Below, in pieces: positions 14,027-33,237 of a DNA stretch of 64,000 bases (position 1 is the stretch's first letter; every line of letters begins with the position of its first letter). The DNA is from a virus (lineage: Duplodnaviria > Caudoviricetes), in IMG/VR virus record IMGVR_UViG_3300027286_000002, one strand, 5' to 3'. The notes beneath the pieces were generated by a model, which worked only from the letters and a program-made list of their open reading frames with translations, was not told the DNA's origin and did not search any database. The translations under genes and the position numbers were made by a program.

Positions 14027-14308
14027 TTATATTTCATGTCTTTTTTTGAGAACAAAAGAGTAAAGATCTGAGTCAATCTTTAGATATTTAGGTTGTGCAA
14101 AGAGATAAGTATCTTTGTATGAGTACAGCCATTCTTTTCCATCATGGTAAACATGATGGATTGTGTTGGTGTTTGTAACCAAAAGAAAACTATTAACATC
14201 AAGACTTTTAAGAGAGAGAAAAAAGAAATGATCATAGAACTTTGTGCAAAGAAATTCATTTAAAGTTCCACTTTGTACTTTAAGGTATAAATCTTCTTCT
14301 TTTAACAT
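14027..14308 (-). CDS. Hypothetical protein (93 aa), coupled to the RM gene
   Basis: Its TAA abuts the ATG of 11012..14026. Confidence 0.6.
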   Translation of the reverse strand: MLKEEDLYLKVQSGTLNEFLCTKFYDHFFFLSLKSLDVNSFLLVTNTNTIHHVYHDGKEWLYSYKDTYLFAQPKYLKIDSDLYSFVLKKRHEI

Positions 14309-14317
14309 TTTTGTGGA

Positions 14318-14599
14318 TTACTTAGACTTTCTATATGCTTCACAGATTTCTTTAAATCTTGCTTGACCATCTTTCCATTCTTGACTGTTATAGTCAGTGG
14401 TGTCTTCTTCCATAGGATATTCATCTTGTTTTTCAACAGGATCACACCATTCACTTGGATCAATATCTGCTAAAGACCATTCATCAGTGGATTTAGGTAA
14501 GGTACTCATTTGACCCCATGCAGGTGGTGCAGGATGTTCAGAAATGTTAGTCCAATTGAATTTAGGTTGGTTAGTAGACCATGTTTTTTGATTTGTCAT
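14318..14599 (-). CDS. Small acidic Trp-rich hypothetical protein (93 aa)
   Basis: AAAGGA SD, first gene after conserved motif at 14638; 6 Trp, D/E-rich. Confidence 0.65.
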   Translation of the reverse strand: MTNQKTWSTNQPKFNWTNISEHPAPPAWGQMSTLPKSTDEWSLADIDPSEWCDPVEKQDEYPMEEDTTDYNSQEWKDGQARFKEICEAYRKSK

Positions 14600-14670: not shown

Positions 14671-15412
14671 AATAAGAAAAATATTTTTTCATAAAATAAT
14701 GTAATGGCTTTCTCTTATATTGGTAATGCAATCCATATTGCTCTTGGAAAGGATACATCTCATTCAAATCTCTAAGTTTTGATCCATATTTATTGACCAT
14801 GAGATCATGTAAATCATCAAGATCAGGGATATGTTTTAAAGAAGCAAGATCAGCCTCTACTTGCAGAGCAACAGATAATTGTTGAAAAATCCATTGCTGT
14901 GCAGGATGATCTAATAAGACATTTTGAAGAGTACTTAAAAGAACATCACCAAGAGAAAGGTAATAGAAAGTGAAGTAATAAGGATCATGTGATTCAAGGT
15001 ATTTAGAAATACAGTAATCAAGAGTAGAGAAAGTAGTTTTATCTTTAATGCGAGTATGCAAAGTAGTTGGACACAAAATACCATCTTGATCTTTAAAAGA
15101 ATAGACACTATCTTCAGCCAAAGGCACTGATCCAATTTCTTTACCTAAGATGGTAGTAGTATCTTTACCAGCTTGACGAGTATCTGTTAAAGTGGTGGCA
15201 TCTGCTTGATAAAGCATGAAAGCATACAAAGAGATATTTTCATTAGTGTTAAGTTCAAAACAAGTATGGTGTTGTAAAACATTTAACCATAATTCGGATT
15301 GAGAGTAAAAATTAGGATCAAGAGCCTGTAGGAAGTCTTTAACATCTTGATCATTTTCTTCAATTCGTTTTAAGACGATTTGTTCAAATTTTTGAAACAG
15401 TAGGTTAGACAT
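14669..15412 (-). CDS. Hypothetical protein (247 aa)
   Basis: ORF with AAAAAGG SD; no recognised motif. Confidence 0.65.
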   Translation of the reverse strand: MSNLLFQKFEQIVLKRIEENDQDVKDFLQALDPNFYSQSELWLNVLQHHTCFELNTNENISLYAFMLYQADATTLTDTRQAGKDTTTILGKEIGSVPLAEDSVYSFKDQDGILCPTTLHTRIKDKTTFSTLDYCISKYLESHDPYYFTFYYLSLGDVLLSTLQNVLLDHPAQQWIFQQLSVALQVEADLASLKHIPDLDDLHDLMVNKYGSKLRDLNEMYPFQEQYGLHYQYKRKPLHYFMKKYFSY

Positions 15413-15478
15413 AGTGTTTACCTTTTTATTTAGATGTGGATGGTAAACAGACTTATAATAAAGTGTAGAGGATTTCTG

Positions 15479-15509
15479 TTTTTAATAATGAATTTATTTT
15501 ATATGTTTT
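15479..15509 (+). promoter_or_regulatory. AT-rich 31-bp element copy 1 (possible late promoter)
   Basis: TTTTTAATAATGAATTTATTTTATATGTTTT, 30/31 identical to 16356..16386; both precede + strand genes. Confidence 0.45.
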
Positions 15510-15546
15510 TAAGAATGTTCATTTACTTTTTCAAAAAGGACAAAAA

Positions 15547-16311
15547 ATGTTTAGAAGATTAAACTCTTTAGCTAAAAAAATAGCAGTAGCATCTCAAAGA
15601 ACACAATCTAGTATTCCAGCTACTCGTAGTCGTTTTGCATCTCGTTCTCGTTTCGCTATGGAAGATCAAGGTGTGAGCCTTAGCGAACTTTCACCACAAA
15701 TGCAAGATACAGCACACTCATTATGGCTTGGTGGTGACAATCCCGAATATGAGATCGCACAAGATATTATTCATGATGAGATCAATCTATTAAATTCTAC
15801 TGTATTTCCAGAAATTACTATGGAAAAATACGGTTTAGAATATGATTACTATCATGGTGAATTTTCTGTTGAAATTGCTAGAATCGATTTTACCGATCTT
15901 TTGATGACACCACGATTTGCAAAGTATAAAAGTCTTGGTAAATTCCTAAGAAGCATTATCTCAGATTTTGATGATTCTAGTACCACAGTCAGTACAGGAT
16001 TTCATGGTGGCTACAAGTTGAAAGGAAATCAAGACTATGCTGAAGGCACAACAAGTTTCTTATTATATCGCATTCAAGACGAAATTGGTCAATATTATGG
16101 CTCTGATCCTAAAAAGGGATTTGCTGGTTTAAAGAATTTGGTTGAAGATTTTGTAGATGAGGTTAGAGAATATGTAACAGATTTCTTACATGAAATTACA
16201 CAGATCATTCGTAACGAATTTGAAAATATTGAAAGTTTTGAATATTTTAAAGACCGAGCAGAAGATAATGATTATAAATTTGACCCGAGGACAGGTAAAA
16301 TTGTTTCCTAA
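15547..16311 (+). CDS. Hypothetical protein with basic RxAS-type leader and acidic body
   Basis: MFRRLNSLAKKIAVAS..RSRFASRSRFA leader; C-terminal AEDNDYKFDPRTG resembles an ending common in phage hypothetical proteins. Confidence 0.65.
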   Translation: MFRRLNSLAKKIAVASQRTQSSIPATRSRFASRSRFAMEDQGVSLSELSPQMQDTAHSLWLGGDNPEYEIAQDIIHDEINLLNSTVFPEITMEKYGLEYDYYHGEFSVEIARIDFTDLLMTPRFAKYKSLGKFLRSIISDFDDSSTTVSTGFHGGYKLKGNQDYAEGTTSFLLYRIQDEIGQYYGSDPKKGFAGLKNLVEDFVDEVREYVTDFLHEITQIIRNEFENIESFEYFKDRAEDNDYKFDPRTGKIVS

Positions 16312-16919: not shown

Positions 16920-18254
16920 TTAAAAGGTAATCTTCATTTCACCTACTTGATTTCCATTTACATTTTTAATGACTACTTGACTGCATTCCTTTAAATCTAA
17001 ATCATTGATTTGGATATTTTCAATGATTAAGGTTGCACCTTCTGTCATTTGGAATTTCATTCCATTGATGCCTGCACTCTTAAACACTTTGGTTTCTGTT
17101 TTAATAGTATCTGTTTTCATAACAGGTATATCCTTTTCTATAGGTGGTTGCTCTACTATAGGTTGCTCTATAATGGTTGGTTGTTCTATAATGGTTGGTT
17201 GTTCTATAATGGTTGGTTGTTCTACAATGGTTGCAGGTTGCTCTACAATGGTAGGTTGGTTATCTAAAAGATGTTTAAAATCATCTTGGTATTTCATTTC
17301 CATCATGTCTTTTACTTCTGTTTTAAGTACAGATGGAATGCCACAACCAAAAATGCCTTTAAATGCTTGATCAATCTTATGGAAGTTTTTAGTCCATTCT
17401 TTATCAAGAACAGGATCAGTAACCATATCAATCAGCCATTGTCTTTTGATTTCAAGATACTGTTCTTTGCTGTATCGTTCTGATTTACCTTGTATTACAG
17501 ATAAAACATGATCTGTTAATAAGATCGCACCTTGTTCATACCAAGATTCTACTCTTGGTGGTAAAGGTGTGCTTGTAGTCATATCCAAAGGATTTTCAAG
17601 ACCATTTAAGAAATTGTTAATGTTTTCTCTGATACATTTTCTGTAAAAATCTACAGGATTTTCATTATGCACATTCACAGGTAGTAAACGATATGGTTTA
17701 TCCATACAGTTTTTTTCAATCACTAACCAATCTTCTTTTTGAATGATTGTTTTAATAAAATTTTCAACTGTGAACACAAAAAAGTCACTTTCTTGTTTGC
17801 AGTCCTCTGCTGGTAATAGAGATCTTAACATTTTAAACCTTTGTGATATTTCCCAAAAGTTTGGATAGTGTTTTTGAATGGTTTCAATCGTAGGTTTGAT
17901 TTTTTGCACAATCTCAATAAATGGTATGCCTAAATCATCTGCTTCTTTTTTTGCCCATTCTCTTATAGGATGTCCTGACATATCTTTTAAATGAAAGACA
18001 AGCATTGTAGTAAATGGAATGATTGGAAAAGACTTTTTGGTTGGATCTTTATGTCCACCAAACATAAAATTCATGCCTAGTTCTTTTCTCAATGCAGGTA
18101 AAATCACATCTTTAATGTTTTCCAACCTGCCACCTACAAAGTAGCATTGAAATGGAAAATTGAGATTGTCATTAGTGATTTGAAAGCTATTTGGATTATC
18201 AAATAATGCTTTAATTTTTTTGCCATCTGTTGGTAATGGTATGCTTGTTGTCAT
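16920..18254 (-). CDS. Protein with N-terminal DUF2325-like flavodoxin-fold domain and PTIIEQ repeats
   Basis: YFVGG...MSGH..REWAKKEADDLGIPFI fits the DUF2325 pattern; tandem repeat near C-terminus. Confidence 0.55.
   Translation of the reverse strand: MTTSIPLPTDGKKIKALFDNPNSFQITNDNLNFPFQCYFVGGRLENIKDVILPALRKELGMNFMFGGHKDPTKKSFPIIPFTTMLVFHLKDMSGHPIREWAKKEADDLGIPFIEIVQKIKPTIETIQKHYPNFWEISQRFKMLRSLLPAEDCKQESDFFVFTVENFIKTIIQKEDWLVIEKNCMDKPYRLLPVNVHNENPVDFYRKCIRENINNFLNGLENPLDMTTSTPLPPRVESWYEQGAILLTDHVLSVIQGKSERYSKEQYLEIKRQWLIDMVTDPVLDKEWTKNFHKIDQAFKGIFGCGIPSVLKTEVKDMMEMKYQDDFKHLLDNQPTIVEQPATIVEQPTIIEQPTIIEQPTIIEQPIVEQPPIEKDIPVMKTDTIKTETKVFKSAGINGMKFQMTEGATLIIENIQINDLDLKECSQVVIKNVNGNQVGEMKITF
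17145..17260 (-). repeat. Coding tandem repeat, ~18-bp unit (PTI[I/V]EQ), about 6 copies
   Basis: TTCTATAATGGTTGGTTG repeated on + strand; protein QPTIVEQPATIVEQPTIIEQPTIIEQPTIIEQPIVEQP. Confidence 0.9.
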
Positions 18255-18351
18255 TTAAAGTTTTCCTTTGTTGACTGTTTGGTTTTTATTCTTAAAGTAT
18301 TTAAAATTAAATTTTACATTTTTAGATCACTTTTTTTGTGATCACCTGCAT

Positions 18352-18903
18352 TTAGAACATTATCTTTTCTAAGACTTCTCTTAAATCACTTAATGTTCTA
18401 TGACTGCCTGTATCTTCAAAACCTTTTTCTTTTTGCTCTTCATAACTTTCATAGATACCGAAAAGTTCACCTGTCAAATCTGACATATCGGAATATTCGT
18501 TATGTTCTACTATGAGTTCAAATGGTTCTGTCAAAGTACCAAGTGTATTGAATATCTTTGATCTCATTGTCTTTTCAAGACTGTGAAATTCAGTTTCTGT
18601 TGCCACTTCTTCAAGTAAACCTCTTAACTTGCTAACTGTCTTTTCACAAATCTTAAAGTTTGCATAGACTTCACTTGCATCTTCTGCATCTCTCATGATG
18701 CTACAAATCACTTCTTCAATCTCATCATTCGCTTGATAGAGATCATGCTGTTTAGACAATGTACTATCTGTATAGTTAACTGCTACTGCTTTGACAACGA
18801 ATGCCTTGAAATCTGCCTCAAGACCTGCAAAGTCATTGTCATGTTTACTGTGTAGGTCTTGAAGACCTTTGAAAATATTTAGGATTAAAGATGACTTCTT
18901 CAA
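18352..18903 (-). CDS. Acidic helical hypothetical protein (183 aa)
   Basis: AAAAGGA SD, preceded by conserved motif at 18943. Confidence 0.65.
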   Translation of the reverse strand: MKKSSLILNIFKGLQDLHSKHDNDFAGLEADFKAFVVKAVAVNYTDSTLSKQHDLYQANDEIEEVICSIMRDAEDASEVYANFKICEKTVSKLRGLLEEVATETEFHSLEKTMRSKIFNTLGTLTEPFELIVEHNEYSDMSDLTGELFGIYESYEEQKEKGFEDTGSHRTLSDLREVLEKIMF

Positions 18904-19506: not shown

Positions 19507-19579
19507 ATTTAAGTTTTTTCATATTCTTTTTATATTCTATCTATCTTTCATACATATAAAGATGAAAGGTTTTAATCCT

Positions 19580-20140
19580 ATGTTTTTTAAAAATCGTATT
19601 GCCAAAGCTAATGTAAATCCTGTTAGGCAAAGAACACAATACTCTTGTGTATCTGCATCTACTGCTATGGCATTAAATGCTTTAGGTTTTGACACATCAG
19701 AAGATGAAGTTCAAAAAGTAATTGGTGCTAAACCTATGCAAGGTGCTAGATGGGAAGAAGTTTTAGCCTGCCTGCAACATTATGGCTGTAGAGGTACTTT
19801 AGTTGTACCTTCTACTTTAAAGCAAGTTAAAGGCTGGACAGATCTAGGCAAGCCTGTTCTCATCTCTTGGAATCCTGAAGGTAGAGAATGGAGTCATGCA
19901 AGTTTAATTTTTGATGTAGTAGAAAAACCTGATGGTACTATGGATGTTTATGTTGCTGATCCAAATATCCCTGATCCTGATCAAACTGTTAGGATTGTAG
20001 ATTCAAGTACTTTCTATTCTAAATGGGCAGAGAAATGGCCCAATTACATGGTTCGTAGACCTGCTCTTATGGTTGATCGTGAAGTAAACTCAGAAGGTCG
20101 TCAAGTGATGGCATCTCTAAGAAAAAGAAAAGGATTTTAA
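19580..20140 (+). CDS. C39-like (papain-fold) cysteine peptidase
   Basis: QRTQYSC (Q-x4-S-C), SHASL (His), VADPN (Asp) in C39 order; SD AAAGG before ATG 19580. Confidence 0.75.
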   Translation: MFFKNRIAKANVNPVRQRTQYSCVSASTAMALNALGFDTSEDEVQKVIGAKPMQGARWEEVLACLQHYGCRGTLVVPSTLKQVKGWTDLGKPVLISWNPEGREWSHASLIFDVVEKPDGTMDVYVADPNIPDPDQTVRIVDSSTFYSKWAEKWPNYMVRRPALMVDREVNSEGRQVMASLRKRKGF

Positions 20141-21394: not shown

Positions 21395-21652
21395 TTAGGC
21401 TTTCTTAATGGCAAAGCCTGTTGCATACTTCTTTTTTGGATTTGCTTCTTTTTCTGCTTTTCTCTTTGCTTTTTCTGCTTTAGAGATTTCTAACAATTCT
21501 TTTCTTAAACCATTTAAAGATTTAGAAATTGTTAGAAGTTCTTTTCTTGCTCGCACACTTGGCTTGAGTTTGCCTTTTTCTGCTGATTCTACATCAGCTA
21601 CAACTGCTTGTAATTGTGCAATCGCTTCGGATAACTTTAATGATAATGTCAT
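21395..21652 (-). CDS. Histone H1-like nucleoid protein, Hc1 type
   Basis: AEKG.....RARKELL.ISK....LRKE...ISKAEK aligns with the Chlamydia Hc1 N-terminal helix (AEKGNKAAAQRVR..SIKLEK.AKVYRKESIKAEK); K/A-rich tail. Confidence 0.65.
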   Translation of the reverse strand: MTLSLKLSEAIAQLQAVVADVESAEKGKLKPSVRARKELLTISKSLNGLRKELLEISKAEKAKRKAEKEANPKKKYATGFAIKKA

Positions 21653-21679
21653 TTGAACATTTCCTTTGTTTTGATTGGT

Positions 21680-22054
21680 TTATTTTATAATACAATAAAA
21701 AGGTCTAAGGTATTCCACAATTTTTTTATGTGATGTCATTTTTATCACTGTCTGAAATTGCTCTTCACCACAGATCTTTGCTATGTCTATCAATTCCTGC
21801 ATCGTAGGTTTAATAATCGTGTTTACAAAAACATGATTTTCTTCCATATATACAAACTCATCTTTTCGGATTAGTCCTTTAAGATATAAGATAGTACTGC
21901 CATATTTTAAAACCCATGCTTCTGCTTCTCTCATTGCTCTTTTTTGTTTCTTATTTACTTTAGGTATAAGATCAGGTGGCAAAACCAACACAGGATCAAT
22001 CCACCTCTTAAAGTAAAAATTGTTTCCAAGATAATCTTTCAAGTTCATTCGCAT
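21680..22054 (-). CDS. Hypothetical protein (124 aa)
   Basis: ORF in the polymerase operon. Confidence 0.55.
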   Translation of the reverse strand: MRMNLKDYLGNNFYFKRWIDPVLVLPPDLIPKVNKKQKRAMREAEAWVLKYGSTILYLKGLIRKDEFVYMEENHVFVNTIIKPTMQELIDIAKICGEEQFQTVIKMTSHKKIVEYLRPFYCIIK

Positions 22055-22220
22055 CTTCCCATTTCAAGAAAATTAACTTTTCTTTGTTGATTACTTCTTC
22101 TTTGGTAGTGATGATCAAGTTATAAAACTTTAACTCGATCTTTAAATCTTTTTTTACTGCCAATGGCAATACGACTTGATAGCCATCACTAATGGCTTGG
22201 ATGATTGTTGAGTTTAACAT
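22008..22220 (-). CDS. Hypothetical protein (70 aa)
   Basis: Starts 3 bp after stop of 22223..22708; overlaps next gene. Confidence 0.45.
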   Translation of the reverse strand: MLNSTIIQAISDGYQVVLPLAVKKDLKIELKFYNLIITTKEEVINKEKLIFLKWEDANELERLSWKQFLL

Positions 22221-22222
22221 TT

Positions 22223-22708
22223 TTATTTTCCCATTTGAAATTTGCCACCTACTTTTAAAGTTTTAGGTGGCAAAGACCATTCGTCTTGTTGAATGACAGG
22301 TTGTTGTGGTTTAAGGTCTTGTGGATTACCTACAAAATATAGATTTTGCACAGGTGTGTTTATCTCATCATTTTGAGATATGACAACAGGTTTTTCAATC
22401 TGTCCTATCTTATAATGTTTAGGCTGTGTTTTATTAAAATCTAAACTAGCTGGTGTCCATACATCAATAGCTGGATTGATATGGTATTCTTCAAAATCAC
22501 TGATGCCTTTATATTGAGATGCTTCAGATTGCTTTATTGTAGGTGTATTAAAAAACCTATCGACTTGAGTAATAATTCTTTCATCCCAAGTAGAAAATGC
22601 CCAGCTTGCTCTTTCACATTTTCTATTTTTACAAACCTTGCAAAACATTTCAGTAAAGTCTTTTTCTGTCATGCCTTGATTATTACATTCAAATAATAAA
22701 TCTTTCAT
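22223..22708 (-). CDS. Hypothetical protein with N-terminal Cys cluster (C..FCxxCxxxxC)
   Basis: Possible metal-binding motif; operon-coupled. Confidence 0.6.
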   Translation of the reverse strand: MKDLLFECNNQGMTEKDFTEMFCKVCKNRKCERASWAFSTWDERIITQVDRFFNTPTIKQSEASQYKGISDFEEYHINPAIDVWTPASLDFNKTQPKHYKIGQIEKPVVISQNDEINTPVQNLYFVGNPQDLKPQQPVIQQDEWSLPPKTLKVGGKFQMGK

Positions 22709-22709
22709 T

Positions 22710-22928
22710 TTATTTATCTTCTTTCTTTGGTGAGATATATAAATCAGAATCTACAATCCAATTATTTCTGCCTACGATTTCTCTTGCTCTTGCAATCGAT
22801 AATGCCATACACCTTCTAAAATTATCTTTTGTAATCACAAGTCCAGCTCCTTCATAATTGTTTATATAATGACATAGCTTTTCATTATATTGAAACCTAT
22901 TGCCACCATGATGAAACCAATATAACAT
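22710..22928 (-). CDS. Mini-gene array member 7 (putative MTase target-recognition module)
   Basis: MLYWF..GN..NNYEGAG..I.KDNFR..MAL..AR..NW..D.D.Y.SP. Confidence 0.7.
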   Translation of the reverse strand: MLYWFHHGGNRFQYNEKLCHYINNYEGAGLVITKDNFRRCMALSIARAREIVGRNNWIVDSDLYISPKKEDK

Positions 22929-22929
22929 T

Positions 22930-23166
22930 TTATCTACATTCTTTCTTAGGTGCTAAATACACATCTGCTTGATTTATCCAAGTATGTTTTATTAAAGATT
23001 TAGATACACTTAATGCTATGCTATCTCTAAAATAATAAGGCTGTAAAAAGAAACCTTGTTTGCCACAATCATCTCTACTAGCTTTTGAAGTAATAGAACT
23101 AATAAAATACTTATATTGTGATGAGTGCATTACATCATTTGATGATAATTCTAACCAACAAATCAT
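22930..23166 (-). CDS. Mini-gene array member 6
   Basis: MICWL..N..ISS..G..FR..IAL..HTWINQADVYLAP. Confidence 0.7.
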   Translation of the reverse strand: MICWLELSSNDVMHSSQYKYFISSITSKASRDDCGKQGFFLQPYYFRDSIALSVSKSLIKHTWINQADVYLAPKKECR

Positions 23167-23390
23167 TTCTCTTCATCCTTAATAATAGGAGCATAATATC
23201 TATCACAATTATTTATCCAAGTTCTATTTATAACATCTCTTCCTCTTGCTACATAGATAGACATATTTAATCTAAAGTTTTTCTGATCTATGTAATATCC
23301 TGAATGTCTACTAGATACACTTGATAAAAAGAAGACATGAGAATCAATAGATGTGATGTCATTATTTGAATTTTCAAACCAACAAATCAT
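23163..23390 (-). CDS. Mini-gene array member 5
   Basis: MICWF..NN..LSS..GYYI..NFR..AR..TWINN.D.YYAP; ATGA overlap with member 6. Confidence 0.7.
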   Translation of the reverse strand: MICWFENSNNDITSIDSHVFFLSSVSSRHSGYYIDQKNFRLNMSIYVARGRDVINRTWINNCDRYYAPIIKDEEK

Positions 23391-23395
23391 TTTAC

Positions 23396-23623
23396 TTATC
23401 TTTCTATAGTAGGTTTAAAATACATATCATTAGCACGATGCCAATTCTCATATTTCCTAGAATCCATAAGATAACCTGTTCTCACAATATAGAAAGCTAA
23501 AGCATCTCTAAAATTAGTTTCTTTTATAGGTAATCCTGTGTTTCCAAAAGAACTTGAAGTGATTAACACAAATCGAGTATTTCTTTTCACTTCATTCGCT
23601 GACATCTCAAAACTAAAAATCAT
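23396..23623 (-). CDS. Mini-gene array member 4
   Basis: MIFSF..N..ITSS..GLPI..NFR..VR..NW...D.YFKP. Confidence 0.7.
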   Translation of the reverse strand: MIFSFEMSANEVKRNTRFVLITSSSFGNTGLPIKETNFRDALAFYIVRTGYLMDSRKYENWHRANDMYFKPTIER

Positions 23624-23876
23624 TTTACTTATCTCTCTTACATGGTGCTAAATGCACATCACAATCTTGATACCAATTTCTACCATTAGGCTGGACTAAT
23701 GCTCTAACATTAAAGAAAGCTATACTCTTCCTAAATGAGTTTCCCTCCCTTATATGAAATCCTGCACCTTGATAGTTATTTACTAAGAATACTAACTCTT
23801 TATTGTATCTTACTAAATTTCCATGTGAGTGAAACCAACAGATCATTTTACTTATCTTTCTTACATGGTGCTAAAT
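23619..23876. repeat. Direct repeats at mini-gene junctions (35 bp, 1 mismatch: 23619..23653 and 23842..23876)
   Basis: ATCATTTTACTTATCT(C/T)TCTTACATGGTGCTAAAT; a 30-bp partial copy at 23376..23405 matches 23832..23861 with 1 mismatch. Confidence 0.85.
23625..23846 (-). CDS. Mini-gene array member 3
   Basis: MICWF..GN..NNYQGAGF.I..NSFR..VR..NW..D.DVHLAP. Confidence 0.7.
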   Translation of the reverse strand: MICWFHSHGNLVRYNKELVFLVNNYQGAGFHIREGNSFRKSIAFFNVRALVQPNGRNWYQDCDVHLAPCKRDK

Positions 23877-24069
23877 ATACATCAGGATCGTTCATCCATG
23901 TATTTTCAGGTAAAGTCCTAGCTATAAATAAACCTATTGTATTTCTAAACGATTCTTTATTTCTAGGATACATTCCACTAACATTAGATGATAATTTAGA
24001 TGAAATAAAACATACAAGTAAAGGATTGAACTGCACATTATTGCCATTATTATTAAACCAACAGATCAT
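23848..24069 (-). CDS. Mini-gene array member 2
   Basis: Start reset to MICWF at 24069; ..ISS..SG..FR..IGLF.AR.LP..TWMNDPDVYLAP. Confidence 0.7.
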   Translation of the reverse strand: MICWFNNNGNNVQFNPLLVCFISSKLSSNVSGMYPRNKESFRNTIGLFIARTLPENTWMNDPDVYLAPCKKDK

Positions 24070-24286
24070 TTTTTGTTCTTTCCACTGATAATGCCAAATA
24101 CACATCAGGATCATTCATCCAAGTATGTTTAGGTAAAGACCTTCCTATATATAAAGAAATTGACTTCCTAAAATTATCTTTTCTTATATAGAAACCATGT
24201 TGATTGTGATATGCACTACTAAATAATGCTACTTGCCAATGATTATGACATACACAACCACCACGATTATTAAAATAACAGATCAT
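24053..24286 (-). CDS. Mini-gene array member 1
   Basis: MICYF..QVALFSSAY..HGFYI.KDNFR..ISLY..R.LP.HTWMNDPDVYLA; starts 7 bp after polymerase stop. Confidence 0.7.
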   Translation of the reverse strand: MICYFNNRGGCVCHNHWQVALFSSAYHNQHGFYIRKDNFRKSISLYIGRSLPKHTWMNDPDVYLALSVERTKNDLLV

Positions 24287-24292
24287 TTTAAT

Positions 24293-26893
24293 TTATTCCT
24301 TTAATAAGATAGATACATCTCTACCTTGATACATAATCTTAATGTCTTTACCTGCATTATTCTTAATCCATTCGCTTAACCTGTCTGTTTCACTATGAGA
24401 TAACTCACTCAACTCATAAATCTCATAATGCTTTGCTTTTTCCTCTTGCTCCGTGCTTAAGGTTGTTTCATTTAATACCTTTGGCTTTGGCTGTCCACTA
24501 TGATCTACTTTAAAAGCATTTACTAAAAACTCATCTTCACCTTTGCCTTCCCTTAACTCTTTCAAGTCATAAGGCACAGACCAATCTTTTCCTATCTCAA
24601 CATCCACTGTTAATGGTACAATCCAATTCTTATTTTGCAATGCTTTATTCCTAACCATAATATCACATAACAAAGGTATCGCTTCACCTATAATGTCTTT
24701 ATGGATTTCAAACACAATTTCATCATGCACTGTTAAAATCATCATTAGCTTATCAAACCAATTTCTCTTTTTAACATTCTCATAAATTAAACTCATTGCA
24801 ATCTTAGTAATATCTGCACTCGTACCTTGCACAGGTGAATTTACTGCCTTTCTCTCATCCTTTGATCTCAAAGAAAACTCTTTAGATTTAATATCAGGCA
24901 TTAACATTCTTCGACCAAAAGCTGTTAATACATATCCATTTTCTTTGGCAAAATCCACTTCCTTTTTCCACCACTTTGTTAAACCTTTATATGTCTTTGT
25001 AAAGGTTTGATATTTCTCATCACCTTCTTCTTGAGTACAACTAATAGTTCTAACTACTGCTTTACCTGTACCACCATAACATAAAGCAAAATTAACACCT
25101 TTCGCATTGCCTCTTAATGCTTTCCAATCAGGTCTTTTCTTTGCCTCTTCACCATAAAAAGCAACTGCTGTCAATGTATGCAAATCACCTATTTTATCTG
25201 ATCCACATATACAGATAGCTGGTGGTATAATAGGAAATCCATCTTCGCCTCGTTCTTTAGTATATTTACGATTGCATGATGAACATCTAAAAAATTCTTC
25301 AATCCATAAAGGCTCTTGACTAATGTTTGTTACAATTCTTAACTCAACACCTGCATAGTCAATTGCTACTAAATAATGATCAGGATTTCTTACTGCAATA
25401 CACTCTCTTAATCTTGAAGTAATCATTGGTCTTTTCGGATCATATCCTGATGGAATACCTTGAAAAGGTACTCTACAACCACCATCTTTTGTCTCCCATG
25501 GTCTACTTGTAGTACCACAACTAAAACGACCTGTATCTGCTCCGAACTGATTAAACTTTGGTTTTAATGTACCATCATCTGCAATATCTTCTTTCATAGG
25601 TATGAGATATTGACCTAATGCTTTAGCTAGTTCTCTTAATCTTTTAATCTTTCTCACAAATGGAAAAGTATCGGATGCCTCTTCAATTACTTCATCTAAA
25701 ACATCAGCACCTGTTGCCACTTGACCACTTGCAGTAGTTTGTAAATTAGGTACTTCTAATTCTCTAAACATCATGCCTAATTGTTGAGAAGATAAAATAT
25801 CATATTTATATTCAAAGACTACTTCTTCTTTTTGTTTAGGATTAGTTAAAGATGCTACCATTTTTCTAGCTACAAAATCTTCACCTGCCATATCTAAATG
25901 TGGATACATACGATCAGCTTCTTTTCTTGCCTCGTCTATGCAATCTTTAAAGCTATCTGTATTATCTGTATTAAACTTATTAACACCTTTTAAATCGCCT
26001 TTCATGATTTTAATGTATGCTGGCATAACATCTCTACCAAGTAATTCATTTGCTCCTTCATATACTTCAATAAGGCTGTCCATCCATTCCTTTTGACCAA
26101 TCTTAATAAACTCTTGTGTTTTCTTTTGATCAATATAAACTCTGTTTCTGTGCATCCACCTAACTGATGTATTGCATTTCTTTTCTATCATATAAAGACT
26201 AATCATTTCTTTAGGAAAGATGTCTTTTAAGATATTATAAAGTTTAAGAGTACATAAAGCATCAGCACCTGCATACCATACACAAGCATCCCAAGACGGA
26301 TCAAGAGTAGAATAATCTTTAATTTTAGATTTAGGAATGAGTTCATCAAGTTCAATCATTTCCCAACCTAATTTATCTTTAGACATATCTTTAAGACCAC
26401 GACCACCTTTATCACGACTGTTCATAAGACAAGCCATAATATAGTTATCTTCCCATAGCTTTGGATTTTCAAATCTTTCTTTACCTAAAAGAGTTTCGCC
26501 ATTATATTCTAAAAACTCTTGATCAAAAGCACCATTATGGAATATAGGAATAGCAGTAGCATTTACATTAAGCAAGCGACTAAATTCTCTATCTATGATT
26601 GACCATGAAACATTATGTTCTGTACCTGCACTGTGTCTAATAGGAAAGTAATATGCTTTCTTTTCATTCGGAGCAATAGAAATACCTACAATAGATGCTC
26701 TTGTTCTACCATGAAAAACACGATTATCTAAACCTGTTGTTTCTAAGTCTATGCCATAATGACTAGATGCCAAACATTCATCAATAGCTTGTTTAATATT
26801 ATCTTTAGTACCTAAAATGAGATCAACTTCTTTCATCCATTTTTTAGGTTTAACATCTGGTCTTTGTAGTGATTCAAAGAAATCTGAAAACAT
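24293..26893 (-). CDS. polA: Family A DNA polymerase with 3'-5' exonuclease domain
   Basis: ExoI IDLETTGL, ExoII HNGAFD, ExoIII YAGADA; ADTGRFS; motif A IDYAGVELR, motif B R.NAKGVNFALCYG, motif C TVHDEIV; no 5'-3' exonuclease domain. Confidence 0.95.
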   Translation of the reverse strand: MFSDFFESLQRPDVKPKKWMKEVDLILGTKDNIKQAIDECLASSHYGIDLETTGLDNRVFHGRTRASIVGISIAPNEKKAYYFPIRHSAGTEHNVSWSIIDREFSRLLNVNATAIPIFHNGAFDQEFLEYNGETLLGKERFENPKLWEDNYIMACLMNSRDKGGRGLKDMSKDKLGWEMIELDELIPKSKIKDYSTLDPSWDACVWYAGADALCTLKLYNILKDIFPKEMISLYMIEKKCNTSVRWMHRNRVYIDQKKTQEFIKIGQKEWMDSLIEVYEGANELLGRDVMPAYIKIMKGDLKGVNKFNTDNTDSFKDCIDEARKEADRMYPHLDMAGEDFVARKMVASLTNPKQKEEVVFEYKYDILSSQQLGMMFRELEVPNLQTTASGQVATGADVLDEVIEEASDTFPFVRKIKRLRELAKALGQYLIPMKEDIADDGTLKPKFNQFGADTGRFSCGTTSRPWETKDGGCRVPFQGIPSGYDPKRPMITSRLRECIAVRNPDHYLVAIDYAGVELRIVTNISQEPLWIEEFFRCSSCNRKYTKERGEDGFPIIPPAICICGSDKIGDLHTLTAVAFYGEEAKKRPDWKALRGNAKGVNFALCYGGTGKAVVRTISCTQEEGDEKYQTFTKTYKGLTKWWKKEVDFAKENGYVLTAFGRRMLMPDIKSKEFSLRSKDERKAVNSPVQGTSADITKIAMSLIYENVKKRNWFDKLMMILTVHDEIVFEIHKDIIGEAIPLLCDIMVRNKALQNKNWIVPLTVDVEIGKDWSVPYDLKELREGKGEDEFLVNAFKVDHSGQPKPKVLNETTLSTEQEEKAKHYEIYELSELSHSETDRLSEWIKNNAGKDIKIMYQGRDVSILLKE

Positions 26894-26949
26894 GATTGTC
26901 CTTTTAATAAAAAGAGTTCAATCATATTATATTATATTAAATCTTTTTT

Positions 26950-27681
26950 CTAAGTATTTTCATCCGTGTATCTATGTGCTTTAAGATTATATTGACAGCA
27001 CATCTCAATACCTACATTTAAACGATTGACTTCAAAAGACATGACAATCTTTTCTAAATGTGTTTGATCAATTTTTTGTTCATCAATAACTAATTGACCT
27101 TCCCCGGGGATATTATCTATGTTTTCTTTTCTTAAATCAATATTTGATTGAAAAACTTCATCTATAAAATCTTCAATCTTTTCATCATCAAAAAATCCTT
27201 CTTCACTTTCATCCCAACTGTCATCTTCATCTTCTTCTTCAAAACCAATGATTTGATTTTGAATTTCTTTCATCAGTTCATTTTTACCTGCATCAGTAGA
27301 AAGATCTGATTTAAGAGCAGTCAAAAGATCAGCTTGATTACCATAATTCTTAACAGCCTTTAATAACTTTTTTGCCATGTCTGTATGCAAGATATTTCCT
27401 TGAAAGAACATTCTTGCACCAATAACACCTTCAAGTTCATATTCACCACTGTGTAATAAACTTGGTCTTGTTAAAGTTACCATACCTTTTAAATATTCTA
27501 ATGGTGTTAGTGATTTAGTAGCATATACTTTTAAATTCATAATCGCATCTGCCAAAGCTGTGATTAAAGCATCTGCTACAATCTTTTCTTTATCGATTGG
27601 AATTAAATTAAAGAGATTGCTAAAAGCTAATTTGACAATAGATGTTGGACTAGCATACTTACTGATATATGAATACTTCAT
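26950..27681 (-). CDS. Hypothetical protein with KYAS/KLAF leader and acidic stretch
   Basis: Start at MKYSY after AAAGGA; EEEDEDDSWDESEE tract. Confidence 0.6.
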   Translation of the reverse strand: MKYSYISKYASPTSIVKLAFSNLFNLIPIDKEKIVADALITALADAIMNLKVYATKSLTPLEYLKGMVTLTRPSLLHSGEYELEGVIGARMFFQGNILHTDMAKKLLKAVKNYGNQADLLTALKSDLSTDAGKNELMKEIQNQIIGFEEEDEDDSWDESEEGFFDDEKIEDFIDEVFQSNIDLRKENIDNIPGEGQLVIDEQKIDQTHLEKIVMSFEVNRLNVGIEMCCQYNLKAHRYTDENT

Positions 27682-27747
27682 TTTAAATCCTTTGTGTTTT
27701 ATCAATACAAAGGATCATACTATAGAATAATTATAAAAAACACACCT

Positions 27748-28104
27748 TTATTGATTGATATAATGCAAAATCACTTTCTTTAAAAATTCAGGTTTGGATA
27801 CTAAGTTATACCATTTAAATGAATGACTTGAAAATTCACTATATGAATAAGTACCATCATTTCTTCCAACATCTGCTATTTTTTCTTCAGTGATCACAAT
27901 TTGAAGTTTAAAATTTCTACCGAAATAAATTCTATTGTCTTCACAAATGAAACTCTTTGCTTTAAGTTTATATTTCACTTGAAGATCATCAAAAGAGTTA
28001 AGAACATCACAAAGAATTTGTGCACCCTCGATACAATAATCTTCATTGCCTTCAATTTCCCAATCGATGTTATTAAGGTCTTGAATTTTTTGATTTAAGT
28101 CCAT
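27748..28104 (-). CDS. Hypothetical protein (118 aa)
   Basis: AAGGA SD; preceded by motif at 28144. Confidence 0.6.
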   Translation of the reverse strand: MDLNQKIQDLNNIDWEIEGNEDYCIEGAQILCDVLNSFDDLQVKYKLKAKSFICEDNRIYFGRNFKLQIVITEEKIADVGRNDGTYSYSEFSSHSFKWYNLVSKPEFLKKVILHYINQ

Positions 28105-28188: not shown

Positions 28189-31100
28189 TTATCCATTTGA
28201 ACGAACATTAAATGTAAATTGAATATACAATAATGGGAATACTGGCTTGTAGAAAGCATTGATCAATAATCCTGTCGCATCTTCAGGATCTTGTACCACT
28301 GCCAAACCTGTATATGATTCAATGATGCCACTCAAAACAAGTCTTTGAAATTCATTATTGACTGCTAATAAAACCTGTGTTTGAATCACAGGTAAATTCT
28401 TAACACCAATAAATCCATCCAAAACACCTCTCATTGTTCTTTGAACTTGATCTGCAATTTGAATGATTGTAGGTGTCTTTGTCAATACAGATGACATATT
28501 GGTTGTTAAACCATGTCTAATCTTAATGGTTGTGCCTGCATTCTCAAGAATAGAAACACCTTTAACTGCTGTTGCATTTGCCTCAACAGGTGTTAGATTT
28601 CTCAATACACCATTAAAGCCATTTACTTGTCTTGATTCCCATGGGGTAGCAACATCAATATTAATAGATGTTGTTGTACCAGCTACTGCACAAGCTAAAT
28701 AGCGACCATCTACAATATAAGTAACAGGATTACCTGTTGCATTTGTGATAGTTAAACTTGCAATATCTGGATAAATAACACGAACACGACTTGAACCTGT
28801 AAGATTTGCCAAACGACCTGCTTCTTTTGGAATAGTACCACTTGCAAAACCTAAAATCGCTGTTCTTTCAGATCTAAATCTTAATGAACTTTGTAAATCA
28901 CAATGCTTGCTAATATGACTTAACAAACTTTCACTTGCAGGGATCAATGGCAAAATTACTGATGGTGTCAAAACTGCTGTAATGCCACCTTCAATAGAAT
29001 CAATCGCTTCAATCATTTGTGTTTCTGTGATTTCAGCACTACCTGCTAATCTCTTAATTTGTTTACAAGCAATTGTACCTGCACCATTCAAGATTGCAAG
29101 ATAAGCACCTAATGACATAGGATTTTGTGTAGATACTTCACCATATTCAGATACAACATCTGCAATGCTATTAAATACCTTTGTTGTATAGTCTACTTTC
29201 TCTTGTGTATAAGAGATATAATAAACTTGACCAATATCAGGTTCACTGCCACCTTTGTCAAAGGTTTCAAGATTAGCTGTATCACCTACTGAAACACCTG
29301 TTGTATTTGATACGATTACAGATACACCATTAACAAAGTTCTTTGGAATATTTGCATTACAAGTGATGTTTTGACTTACATTCCATTTAAAGAAAGCATT
29401 TGCATCTTGGGGATAATCTACACCACCATCTCTTGGCAAAATAGTGAATGTTAATCCTGTTACAGCATCTACATAGGTTTGACCAATATAACCATCTTGA
29501 CCAAGACCACTATTGAAAATAGAAGTATTAGCTGAACCTGATCCATTAGATACACTTGATTTTACATAGAAACCTTGTTTAGCATCTTCACCAACTGCAC
29601 CATCTAAATTTGTAATCTTTAATCCTGTGCCTTTGGTTGTAATCGCATTGCCACCTGTGAAATCTACAATAGATCCTACACCTGTGCTTAAACTTTCAAT
29701 CGCTAGATATTGCTTGTTAGTTGCACTAATATGTACAAAAGCAACAGCCTTTGATTTGAAATAGTCATTTGCAAGAGTTTCACCAAAAAGCAAATCTGTT
29801 AATGTATTTGATTGATGGCTCATTAATGCACTTACAATTTGACTTGCATTTACACTAGATGATGTAGAGGTTTGATTTGCAGTTAAACCTAAAGTTTCAT
29901 TTGCACTACCATTTAAAACTTTAAGATAACTATTTACAAAAGATCCACCACCTACAATACGAATGCCTGCACCTTCTTGAGTAGCTACTACAATAGCATC
30001 TACACCAGCATCAGCAAAAGCATTATTGATTTGATCTACAATAGAATTAGAGATCAAGATCAAACCATCTACAATACTCTCACCTACACAAGTTAAAGTG
30101 CCTGTGCCACTAGATGTAAATTCTACACTTACAATAGTTCCATTCACATCAAGCAATAAAGTATTATTAGCTGGATATGAGTTATTAGTACCATTATAGA
30201 ATTTCACAGCTGGTTGACTGTCTGCTGTCTTTTGTTCTGTCCAACCTGTTAATAACTTTAATGTAGGTTGTTGAACGACTGCACCTTTAAGAGCAGATGC
30301 AAAACTTGCTTTTAATCCTGCCTTTGTTAATAAGCTACCTGCTACTACACGGATACCTAACTCACCACTTGGTAAGAAATATGTATTGCCTTGAAAGAAA
30401 CGATTTCTCAAAATCAATCTTTCTTTTAAAGCACCACCACCTAGTGAAGTAGTAGCAACTTGTGCAACAGGTAAAAGACCAAATTTAGTTTGTGTACCAT
30501 CTGCATCATCTGTATCAATACCTGCAATGATAGCAAAATCATCTTCAGGATCAGCTTGGCTAATAAATTCAAGGTAACCATAGGTATCTTCATCAGCTAG
30601 AATGTGGACTACTGTGCCTGTACCACCTAAGAAAAATCCATTATTGTTAGCAGTAAAGACAGTACCAATATTATTATCTGCACTACCTACCATTGTATAG
30701 TCTGTACCACCTACTGTTAAAATAACATAGGTATCACCATCTACAATATCTTGAGCATCTACAATTTCAAATTTCTTGCCTAATTGATCTAAGCTAAAAA
30801 TCAAACGCCCTTGTGAATTTGCAGTAACAGAAATAATCACACCTTCAGTAACACCATCTACTTCATATTGAAGTAAAGCATCTACTAATGCACTATTGAT
30901 TTGTGTTTCAAGTTCTGTTGCCAAAGCAGTAGCAGTAGAATAAACAGCATCATTTAAAGTGATTGAAATTTCGCCTACTGTTCCATTTACATTACCTACA
31001 AATTGGAAAGATAAAGTATCATGGCTGTTTGCAATAATCTCTACACCACCATTTAAGGTAGTCATGGTTTGGTATTGAGCAGATACAGAATTACAAGCAA

Positions 31101-33237
31101 TATTAATAGCATTTGCAATATCTGTAGCAGTACAATTTGCGACTGTGCCAATGTTCACTACTACATCTTGATTATCCAGCTTTAATTGAATGCTGTCATT
31201 ACCTGCACTAATTGTACCTAAATCTTCCAATCCACTTTCTACTGTATATGGCAACACATCACCTACGATATGTGCAATCGCTCCAAAACGACCTGCACCT
31301 GTTGGTGCTGATAAACTTACACCACCTGTGATAGTTGCTTCATCAATAGCTAAATTGATTTGATCGCTTGTATCTTTAATGGTGAAATATGGACTTGCTC
31401 CACCACTAATATATAAAGCACTTGTAGGATTGCTAGATGCAAATTTAACAGTCACTGTTTCATTAATAGGTGTGCCTGTTGTGATACGAGCATCAGGTAG
31501 TAATTCACTGCCACTTGGGAAAGACAAATCTACACCATTTAAAGATGATCCTTTTGTACCTAAAGTAACATCATATAAAGCACTACCTTGCTTTAAAACT
31601 TGATATTTACCTGATCCACTTGCACCATCTGAAATACAAACAAATTGATATTGATTATTTCCACCAATAGTAGAATCAGTCAAAGTGTTATAATAGAAAG
31701 TAGCAAATACTTCTTTGCCTTCTTCTACTTCTTCAGATAAGACGATTGTGGAATCAACAGGATTAACACGAACGACTACTGAATCAGCTTTCTCAATCGC
31801 ATCGGTAAAATTATATCCTACTTTGACTTGAACTAAATCTGCTCTTGAAGTAGGTGTGCCTGAACCTGTACCATCGACAGGTTGGTATGGCAATTTAAAT
31901 GTGCTTGGTAAAGGTCTAGGTGGTACAACACTTGTGTCAATTACTCTTTCACATTTAACAAGATAAACCTTATCATCTTTTAAAGATGCTGTGATTTGGC
32001 TGTCATTAAATGCTGTTGCACCTGTTGAGGTTTCACCTGCTTCAACAAGAACAGAAGTACCCCAAACAATCTTATCATCTTTAAGAACCCATGAAACACC
32101 TTCGATAAAATTAGAAGATGCACCACCTGATCCATCAGCAACAAGAGAAACAGATTCAACACTAACAACACCTGTGCTTGGAATGTAATCAAATTGATCT
32201 CTAAAGCTATTAAAGTAATAAGTTACTGTTAAAGTAGCATCAGTAGCTGGAGCATCTTTCAAAGTAATGCTACCATTAGTACCATCTACACTTGCAGGTG
32301 AAATTGTACTGCCATTAAGTTTAACTACAACATCAGTAATATCAGTAGTAGTAATACCACCATTAGTACCATCGACAATAGGATAATGACTTGTAAAGAA
32401 AGTCTTGTTTCTTGAAGTAGCTTGATTAACGACAAGACCAAGTTTAGCATTAGCAGATCCACTACCAATAACAATAGAGCCATTAGCATTTAATTGTAAG
32501 TTTTCTTGATTAAAGTTATCTGTGTATGTAGATGCCTCTAAAGAACCATAAGATCCTGAATTAATAATAGCAACTACTCTATTAAGATCATCTTCTCTAT
32601 TGCCTGTTGAAACTGTTGGCAAAGAAATAGAATATTGAACACCATCTACTAAGAAAACAAAAACATTACTTAAAGCATCAAAATCAAAGCTACCATTTGA
32701 GCCAATGATTTCAGCTTGAGTAGTAGTGATTTGAGATGAAATATCTTCATTCTCAATTAAAGTATCTGTTCTCTTAAAAAAATAAGAAACTAAAACAGTA
32801 TCTGTGATAGCTGGTGTAGATGCAAGTTCAACAATACCTTTAGCACCATCTACACTTAAAACAACAGTAACTTGACCATTGACATAAGCAGTGACACTAG
32901 AACTATCAGTAGCGACTACACCACCACCCGTACCATCAACCATAGGAAATTTTTGAACTTGCACTTTAGTTGCAGTTCCATTGAAATTACCTAAAATTGG
33001 TGTACCATCAGGATTAAATCCTAATACTGCACGACCACTCATATTTTCATTTACAATTCGTTGATCTACAGATGAAGAAGATCCACGAATCATTTGAACT
33101 CCAACAGATTGAATAGTTTCTTTACCTGCACCTAGCAATAAAGGTATTTGACCTGTGAAATTGCTAGATGGTAAAGGTGAATCAAAAACTGTTTGAGTAT
33201 ATACACCGGGCGGTGCATAGCCACCTTGAATAGCCAT
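28189..33237 (-). CDS. Contractile tail sheath protein, unusually large (1682 aa)
   Basis: N-terminal YAPPGVYT; C-terminal sheath core (V..YG, RSERTAILG, RVRVIYP, I.IRHGLTT, YKPVFPLLYIQFTF); long central insertion. Confidence 0.85.
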   Translation of the reverse strand: MAIQGGYAPPGVYTQTVFDSPLPSSNFTGQIPLLLGAGKETIQSVGVQMIRGSSSSVDQRIVNENMSGRAVLGFNPDGTPILGNFNGTATKVQVQKFPMVDGTGGGVVATDSSSVTAYVNGQVTVVLSVDGAKGIVELASTPAITDTVLVSYFFKRTDTLIENEDISSQITTTQAEIIGSNGSFDFDALSNVFVFLVDGVQYSISLPTVSTGNREDDLNRVVAIINSGSYGSLEASTYTDNFNQENLQLNANGSIVIGSGSANAKLGLVVNQATSRNKTFFTSHYPIVDGTNGGITTTDITDVVVKLNGSTISPASVDGTNGSITLKDAPATDATLTVTYYFNSFRDQFDYIPSTGVVSVESVSLVADGSGGASSNFIEGVSWVLKDDKIVWGTSVLVEAGETSTGATAFNDSQITASLKDDKVYLVKCERVIDTSVVPPRPLPSTFKLPYQPVDGTGSGTPTSRADLVQVKVGYNFTDAIEKADSVVVRVNPVDSTIVLSEEVEEGKEVFATFYYNTLTDSTIGGNNQYQFVCISDGASGSGKYQVLKQGSALYDVTLGTKGSSLNGVDLSFPSGSELLPDARITTGTPINETVTVKFASSNPTSALYISGGASPYFTIKDTSDQINLAIDEATITGGVSLSAPTGAGRFGAIAHIVGDVLPYTVESGLEDLGTISAGNDSIQLKLDNQDVVVNIGTVANCTATDIANAINIACNSVSAQYQTMTTLNGGVEIIANSHDTLSFQFVGNVNGTVGEISITLNDAVYSTATALATELETQINSALVDALLQYEVDGVTEGVIISVTANSQGRLIFSLDQLGKKFEIVDAQDIVDGDTYVILTVGGTDYTMVGSADNNIGTVFTANNNGFFLGGTGTVVHILADEDTYGYLEFISQADPEDDFAIIAGIDTDDADGTQTKFGLLPVAQVATTSLGGGALKERLILRNRFFQGNTYFLPSGELGIRVVAGSLLTKAGLKASFASALKGAVVQQPTLKLLTGWTEQKTADSQPAVKFYNGTNNSYPANNTLLLDVNGTIVSVEFTSSGTGTLTCVGESIVDGLILISNSIVDQINNAFADAGVDAIVVATQEGAGIRIVGGGSFVNSYLKVLNGSANETLGLTANQTSTSSSVNASQIVSALMSHQSNTLTDLLFGETLANDYFKSKAVAFVHISATNKQYLAIESLSTGVGSIVDFTGGNAITTKGTGLKITNLDGAVGEDAKQGFYVKSSVSNGSGSANTSIFNSGLGQDGYIGQTYVDAVTGLTFTILPRDGGVDYPQDANAFFKWNVSQNITCNANIPKNFVNGVSVIVSNTTGVSVGDTANLETFDKGGSEPDIGQVYYISYTQEKVDYTTKVFNSIADVVSEYGEVSTQNPMSLGAYLAILNGAGTIACKQIKRLAGSAEITETQMIEAIDSIEGGITAVLTPSVILPLIPASESLLSHISKHCDLQSSLRFRSERTAILGFASGTIPKEAGRLANLTGSSRVRVIYPDIASLTITNATGNPVTYIVDGRYLACAVAGTTTSINIDVATPWESRQVNGFNGVLRNLTPVEANATAVKGVSILENAGTTIKIRHGLTTNMSSVLTKTPTIIQIADQVQRTMRGVLDGFIGVKNLPVIQTQVLLAVNNEFQRLVLSGIIESYTGLAVVQDPEDATGLLINAFYKPVFPLLYIQFTFNVRSNG

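Follow-up and report, generated by a model that had tools for sequence, protein, structure and literature searches.

Seven Mini-Genes behind the DNA Polymerase of a Giant Freshwater Phage as Probable Trans-Acting Modules of a Split N6-Adenine Methyltransferase

In this study, we analysed a 64,000-nucleotide stretch of the virus record IMGVR_UViG_3300027286_000002 (Duplodnaviria; Caudoviricetes), which is referred to below as the window, and within it an array of seven consecutive mini-genes that lie directly behind the DNA polymerase gene polA (24286..22710, minus strand). The seven mini-proteins share a family with the variable segment of the P0159-like NPPY methyltransferases, and the same phage encodes a methyltransferase body from which this segment is missing. 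In our assessment, the mini-genes probably encode the trans-acting, interchangeable specificity modules of a split phage N6-adenine methyltransferase, which would provide multispecific protective methylation. The more specific proposal of a combinatorial enzyme that works by fragment complementation, in which one body combines with any of at least 19 plug-ins of ~70 amino acids and each plug-in brings its own motif, has in our view an even chance of being correct.

Results

Family identity of the mini-proteins

A profile of the seven proteins was searched exhaustively against 1.8 billion representatives and gave 306 matches, the majority of which were stand-alone proteins of 65-85 amino acids. 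The best matches were long proteins that hold a unit of ~68 amino acids either once or as two to five tandem copies, with five units in P0067 (E 6.6e-39), four in P0070, three in P0068 and two each in P0077 and P0087. Across these single- and multi-module methyltransferases, the E-values against the seven-member profile ranged from 6.6e-39 to 1e-7, and the match always fell at the same inter-domain position, which in the family alignment is flanked by the catalytic domain on one side and by a helical C-terminal domain on the other. In the reverse test, the full-length proteins recovered all seven open reading frames (ORFs) by phmmer, down to 4e-13. An earlier reading of the DNA, made from the sequence alone (the sequence-only reading), had likened the consensus of the mini-proteins to that of a variable segment downstream of the catalytic domain of N6-adenine methyltransferases; both the profile search, whose best match is a member of that enzyme family, and the family alignment agree with this comparison. 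The long relatives carry the NPPY motif and, in some cases, weak Pfam N6_Mtase/Eco57I matches, which were all that the Pfam, PHROGs and NCBIfam scans of full-length members yielded. More than 700 full-length proteins were collected in one search, annotated as hypothetical only and without a Pfam model, and such members are also found in bacterial genomes, e.g., those of Clostridium botulinum and Filobacillus. The representative P0159 (UniProt A0A843HSH6) is titled ‘Eco57I restriction-modification methylase domain-containing protein’. The NPPY motif and the fold matches place the module-less bodies and the intact relatives in the gamma class of N6-adenine methyltransferases, an assignment that applies to these proteins and not to the mini-proteins alone.

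General annotation resources did not reveal this relationship. Among the Pfam models, the seven proteins had no match at E <= 10 except for a chance match to Longin, and Methylase_S (PF01420) was not found; the search of PHROGs gave nothing below 0.01 and the NCBIfam scans likewise gave nothing useful. Moreover, the mini-genes had no counterpart in the GenBank phage collection by megablast or tblastn, and the profile of the full-length family, when compared with the PDB sequences, matched in the catalytic domain only (M.BseCI and a type I HsdM).

Two further groups of proteins were observed in the family. P0121, P0152, P0171, P0178 and others (~300 amino acids), as well as D1YJ52, A0A3M5LM02 and H5V8N1 from AFDB, are stand-alone proteins of 270-360 amino acids that are equivalent to the recognition and C-terminal half of the family members and have the module at residues ~60-140. 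Either natural splits at a different site or fragmentary metagenome genes could account for them. Most full-length members (P0210-P0446, about 810-880 amino acids) have an extra N-terminal region of ~270 amino acids with no Pfam match, and if this region were a nuclease, these members would be type IIG restriction-modification enzymes.

A module-less body in the same genome

The sequence-only reading had reported that no matching methyltransferase body lies inside the window, which holds, and had offered as one option that the mini-proteins are separate subunits for a split body encoded elsewhere. The body is indeed located outside, 18.6 kb before the window start. The genome record of the window (G000; 195,689 bp, estimated to be 63% complete) contained only the seven module copies and no body, which was a false negative, because this record is a shortened version of the contig Ga0255134_1000001 (at least 339 kb) and ends 3.7 kb before the body. 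Synteny with G001, a complete relative of 316 kb whose polA is 90% identical, put the equivalent locus of the window phage ~3 kb past the end of the record. A walk along the 339,367-bp metagenome contig, which was anchored with window genes (100.000% identity over overlaps of 28.6, 16.7 and 7.1 kb), led to a module-less body of 520 amino acids at L040 10804-12366, about 18.6-20.2 kb before the window start. In this way, the proposed search of the rest of the genome for an NPPY methyltransferase without the segment was successful. The body matches the family profile A2 only at positions 4-308 and 367-546 and is coupled by ATGA to eight stand-alone module genes, which are followed by four further modules after a Cpn10 homologue and a 380-amino-acid helix-turn-helix gene (L040 10804-17142). 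The window phage therefore has one body and at least 19 free modules, eight and four of them beside the body and seven behind polA. Because modules of the MICWF type also stand directly beside the body, the polA array belongs to the same module family.

The same arrangement was found in the relatives. G001 encodes a 519-amino-acid body that matches the family profile at positions 4-308 (1.8e-94) and 367-547 (6.6e-60) and has an unrelated linker of ~40 amino acids in the place of the module; it is followed by seven stand-alone module genes in ATGA overlap. This body-then-array layout recurs in four related contigs (G001, L024, L025 and L032). In total, 13 module-less bodies, which are 69-89% identical, share the conserved replacement linker. 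The option of separate subunits is thus supported by the body in the same genome, by the four related contigs and by the predicted docking that is described below.

Other genes were also observed in the body locus of the window phage. The Cpn10/GroES homologue (L040 14714-14986), a hydrophobic ORF of 60 amino acids (14217-14399) and two genes of ~370-380 amino acids with multiple helix-turn-helix motifs (15000-16142 and 17755-18867) are situated between and beside the two arrays.

Predicted structure and docking

The AlphaFold2 model of the single-chain member P0159 had a predicted local distance difference test score (pLDDT) of 92.5. In this model, the unit (residues 305-369) consists of three strands, a helix and an extended tail. 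The model matched DrdV over the catalytic domain (Z 18.4) and M.TaqI over model residues 11-382, through the C-terminal recognition domain of M.TaqI (Z 16), and it aligned over its full length with LlaGI, M.BseCI and CamA. The recognition domain of CamA comprises residues 320-577 and is a beta cluster with helices on its flanks, which reads the DNA through its loops (PMC8187626). Since its position aligns with the recognition domains of M.TaqI and CamA, the unit was assigned to the recognition half, of which the ~68 amino acids would, judging by their position in the model, form the strand core. The second mini-protein of the array, W2 (23848..24069, minus strand; 73 amino acids from the conserved MICWF start), also folds confidently when modelled in isolation (AlphaFold2 pLDDT 85).

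W2 was further used as the docking partner in a complex prediction with the body of G001, which was performed in three runs with three controls and with alignments that we built ourselves. The complex scored 0.87 with three concordant runs, while the best control reached 0.00. In the calibration of the tool, scores at this mark were obtained for 58 of the 80 solved complexes and for 2 of the 110 mismatched pairs, a calibration that is only rough here because of the analyst-built alignments. Approximately 200 residue contacts were predicted, which involve residues 203-244 (catalytic domain), 263-311 (hairpin and helix), 358-396 (start of the C-terminal domain) and 504-518 (C-terminal end) of the body; the replacement linker is outside the predicted interface. 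The predicted complex looks like the intact enzyme with the module in its usual place, which supports, though it does not prove, the binding of the two proteins. In an alignment of 134 members, the residues outside the interface were more variable than those within it (2.74 vs. 2.21 bits, one-sided p = 0.02), and the most variable stretches of the module were positions 13-18, 26-31, 36-39 and 59-62. As conserved residues outside the predicted interface, G32 and R/K51 are candidates for a shared functional contact.

Organisation and expression of the polA array

The ORF list, the alignment and the profile scan confirmed the earlier description of seven tandem ORFs of 72-78 amino acids that lie behind polA and share a set of anchor residues. 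All seven ORFs are intact, are encoded on the minus strand and have one common skeleton. Over the whole length of their alignment, M1, G, F-R, W and D are invariant, and the pairwise identity to the first protein (W1) is 28-51%; in the genome scan, the E-values of the individual copies against the seven-member profile were 1e-29 to 4e-35, far lower than chance would give. The upstream flank, also in G001 and in a second relative, G002, is polA, which encodes a family A DNA polymerase with a 3'-5' exonuclease (24293..26893, minus strand; Pfam DNA_pol_A 9e-70, DNA_pol_A_exo1 9e-10). Its stop codon ends at 24293 and W1 starts at 24286, which leaves a 6-nt gap. The downstream flank in all three phages is a conserved gene of 161 amino acids with no function assigned (22223..22708, minus strand), separated from the last mini-gene by 1 nt. 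Along the array, neighbouring mini-genes overlap by 17 nt at the first junction, are separated by 1, 1 and 5 nt at the next three, overlap by 4 nt at the fifth and are separated by 1 nt at the last. The cassette junctions carry direct repeats of 24-58 nt, which are imperfect and composed of the last codons, the stop, the ATG and the first codons (22694..24290, no strand assigned).

The individual mini-genes differ in their relationships. W1 (24053..24286; 77 amino acids), which is directly downstream of polA, has a tail that resembles a methylase-adjacent module of G001. The longest ORF of W2 reaches 24114 owing to an upstream ATG and would encode 88 amino acids, compared with 73 from the conserved start. 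Orthologues in the G002 array were found for W3 (23625..23846; 73 amino acids; G002 cassette 4, 83-85% amino acid identity), W4 (23396..23623; 75 amino acids; cassette 2, 89%), W5 (23163..23390; 75 amino acids; cassette 3, 85%) and W7 (22710..22928; 72 amino acids; cassette 8, 94%), with ratios of nonsynonymous to synonymous substitution rates (dN/dS) of 0.08, 0.14, 0.12 and 0.06, respectively. W6 (22930..23166; 78 amino acids) has a 7-residue insertion in loop 2 and is without an orthologue in the G002 array; it is similar to the module at the end of the methylase-adjacent arrays in the same genome.

Each cassette begins with an ATG exactly at the module boundary, where 116 of 129 family members have M, and is preceded by a purine-rich stretch resembling a ribosome-binding site, which is made by the last codons of the preceding cassette within the junction repeats. 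As no terminator-like site was found in 21500-27800, i.e., from polA through the genes downstream of the array, the array is likely to be co-transcribed with polA. In the relatives, small arrays were also found behind a DnaB-like helicase (G001) and an SbcC-like ATPase (L029), so a placement behind replication or recombination genes recurs. The third array of G001, with three module genes (L021 4273-5024; G001:208296-209026), is situated between the DnaB-like helicase (502 amino acids) and a zinc-finger primase-like gene (174 amino acids).

Two other explanations of the array were rejected. Read-through or fusion of the seven ORFs was ruled out, as their frames differ and each ORF starts at the module boundary, and the status of pseudogenes or decaying repeats was ruled out by the dN/dS values of 0.06-0.14.

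Evolution of the array

Between the same flanking genes, there are two copies in G001, seven in the window and 11 in G002, whose polA is 98% identical. Of the window cassettes, four (W3, W4, W5 and W7) have orthologues in G002 with 83-94% identity in a changed order and three have none, so the comparison of cassette number and order among the relatives, which had been proposed earlier, revealed both a variable number and shuffling. The low dN/dS of the orthologous cassettes is a sign of purifying selection, by which each cassette type is maintained as a working protein. Their synonymous divergence (dS) is 0.46-1.41 compared with 0.27 for polA, an excess that suggests that the cassettes are older than their flanks and have been exchanged between lineages. 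One cassette of G001 (L020 7045-7341, minus strand; 98 amino acids) is matched twice in part by the module profile (at profile positions 1-49 and again at 34-70), contains the NFR helix in duplicate and looks like the product of recombination between two cassettes. The junction repeats could serve as a substrate for unequal crossing-over. In other freshwater and river metagenomes with this phage, the flanks form long identical contigs, and the array breaks into short contigs that have unlike sequence at the cassette borders and, in one case, an alternative join. These assembly breaks are consistent with variation within the population, even though repeats alone can also break assemblies.

Other genes of the window

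The window has a second methylase gene at 11012-14026 (minus strand), which encodes a 1004-amino-acid MmeI/type ISP-like N6-adenine methyltransferase (Type_ISP_C 5e-47, N6_Mtase 9e-16). This enzyme has its own recognition domain in cis and is unrelated to the split one. Its assignment to a different family in the sequence-only reading was correct, since besides the Type_ISP_C match, the comparison of the 134-member module profile with this enzyme (P0066) by hhalign gave a probability of 0.1%, that is, no similarity to the Type ISP/MmeI recognition domain. No helicase or nuclease domain was detected in it by Pfam, in which about 370 N-terminal residues have no match. Additionally, the window contains two giant ORFs, at 455-9034 (minus strand; 2859 amino acids) and at 28189-33237 (minus strand; 1682 amino acids), the latter with a weak match to a phage tail sheath C-terminal domain (5e-4). 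A C39-like cysteine peptidase of 192 amino acids (19562-20140, plus strand; Peptidase_C39_2, 2.6e-8) is followed by the gene for a repeat-rich acidic/basic protein of 336 amino acids, and both are conserved in G001.

Discussion

In the mechanism that we propose, the body would be a family member from which the module core was removed, with the conserved linker of ~40 amino acids in its place. One mini-protein at a time would dock non-covalently between the catalytic domain, the extra beta-hairpin and the C-terminal helical domain and would thereby complete the enzyme. The docking surface would be made by the conserved anchor residues, and the exposed variable loops (~13-18, 26-31, 36-39 and 59-62) may help to read the DNA. 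With one body and many modules, many motifs could be methylated and the replicating phage DNA could be guarded from many host restriction systems. The polA array would act as a third module depot, probably co-transcribed with the replication genes, whose content appears to turn over fast through the gain, loss and shuffling of cassettes. The actual binding, the methyltransferase activity, the role of the module in specificity and the anti-restriction purpose are the parts of this mechanism that we infer. For the module as a target-recognition element, the support is positional and comparative, and comes from its position in the enzyme, its variable exposed loops and the tandem copies in the relatives.

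Several observations weigh against this proposal. A split domain may score high in docking since the model knows the intact fold, and the body that was docked is that of the relative G001, which is 86% identical (a figure that was taken from the near-length-matched cluster relative P0329). The fold searches with the isolated module returned nothing significant, with a best Z of 2.6 in PDB (VIA wide) and a best Foldseek E of 3.2 in PDB, and the Atlas feature search with the isolated module gave unnamed clusters only, at 0.77. The Foldseek comparison of the module alone, which had been suggested as a check, thus failed to match a known DNA-reading fold, and the label of recognition element accordingly comes from position and not from a direct match. 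Moreover, the prediction buries most of the module against the body, so the module could be mainly structural, and the contrast in variability between interface and non-interface residues is modest (p = 0.02).

The burial of the module, its lack of a match to a known DNA-reading fold and the modest contrast between exposed and buried positions would also fit modules that complete the split methylase without setting its specificity. As such structural or activating plugs, they would owe their diversity to factors such as escape from host inhibitors or degraders, expression timing or stability. We regard this explanation as unlikely. The module falls in the region that is aligned with the recognition domains of M.TaqI, CamA and M.BseCI, and the two to five different tandem modules per chain in the relatives are hard to explain for a purely structural plug. 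Furthermore, the 19 distinct types, individually conserved as the dN/dS values indicate, suggest that each has a function of its own.

Quite improbable, in our judgement, is a function of the modules as decoys or inhibitors of host-encoded members of the family (type IIG, BREX or type ISP-like defence methylases), by which they would compete for the docking site or bind the DNA sites. Full-length members of the family do exist in bacteria such as C. botulinum and Filobacillus, and small arrays occur away from any body, after polA, the DnaB-like helicase and the SbcC-like ATPase. However, the site that a decoy would have to occupy is already filled in cis in the full-length enzymes, and docking into the phage body was predicted with high confidence. 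In addition, the genomes that were examined fully or near the arrays all have their own module-less body, which is translationally coupled to modules of the same type.

The absence of a full-length module-bearing gene from the complete genome of G001 makes both the decoy function and the recombination of modules into a full-length gene less likely. For the latter, in which the arrays would be a silent store whose cassettes are moved into an expression site by recombination, similar to the shufflon-type switching of hsdS, the junction repeats, the hybrid cassette of G001 and the population-level rearrangements show that recombination acts on the arrays; we nevertheless consider it very improbable, since every cassette has its own ATG at the module boundary, a stretch resembling a ribosome-binding site and its own stop, the gap in the body holds a conserved linker rather than a cassette, and the Pfam scan showed no invertase or recombinase next to the polA array.

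In the literature, we found no description of the module family or of the split-body arrangement. If the modules set the specificity, they would represent a new route to viral multispecificity, for which several domains per chain or whole Type I subunits are known, and the first library of recognition modules that acts in trans on a monomeric DNA methyltransferase. With one body and a cheap, quickly exchanged library of 7-9 kDa inserts, a giant phage would possess an ‘epigenetic camouflage’ that is multispecific and rapidly reshuffled, which would help to account for the way in which giant freshwater phages withstand the diverse restriction systems of their hosts. It would also mean that M.TaqI/CamA-like enzymes possess a swappable core in their recognition half, and the system could be a natural scaffold for engineering methyltransferases with chosen motifs, i.e., for programmable methylation. 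Finally, a function would be obtained for a large unannotated family of over 700 full-length enzymes, for which there is no Pfam model, and hundreds of mini-proteins that stand alone.

Comparison with Known Systems

Naturally split methyltransferases are known among the C5 enzymes, where M.AquI and M.EcoHK31I each consist of two polypeptides. As in the system that is proposed here, an active methyltransferase is rebuilt from separately encoded pieces, but these splits are one-to-one, each with only one partner and one specificity, and are not known to include a library of pieces. The intact members of the present family have the fold, the domain order and the NPPY motif in common with M.TaqI, CamA, M.BseCI, MmeI, DrdV and LlaGI, and, like M.TaqI and CamA, they carry an additional beta-hairpin on their catalytic domain. 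In contrast, the sequence similarity to this M.TaqI/CamA/type IIG group is confined to the catalytic domain, and no solved enzyme of the group is split or has repeated or exchangeable sub-modules.

The HsdS subunits of Type I systems and the S subunits of Type IIB systems (e.g., BsaXI S) resemble the modules in that specificity is provided in trans by an exchangeable, fast-evolving polypeptide that joins the methyltransferase, and loci with several alternative hsdS genes also exist. However, HsdS has ~400 amino acids and two complete recognition domains with coiled-coil spacers (Methylase_S) and binds two HsdM, whereas the modules of ~70 amino acids are fragments of a domain, have no Methylase_S match and, according to the prediction, fit into a monomeric enzyme of the M.TaqI/CamA type; they are therefore not members of this group.

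The multispecific C5-cytosine methyltransferases of the Bacillus phages SPR, phi3T and rho11s (Trautner et al. 1996, PMC450048, as cited in PMC12707154) similarly combine one catalytic framework with several alternative recognition modules against many restriction systems. The relatives P0067, P0068 and P0070, with their modules in tandem in one chain, come close to these enzymes. The Bacillus phage enzymes, however, modify C5-cytosine and have all of their recognition domains in cis in a single polypeptide, while the system of the window phage is of the N6-adenine (NPPY) type and has separate modules of 70-80 amino acids, at least 19 of them in three loci, together with a module-less body, which sets it apart from that group.

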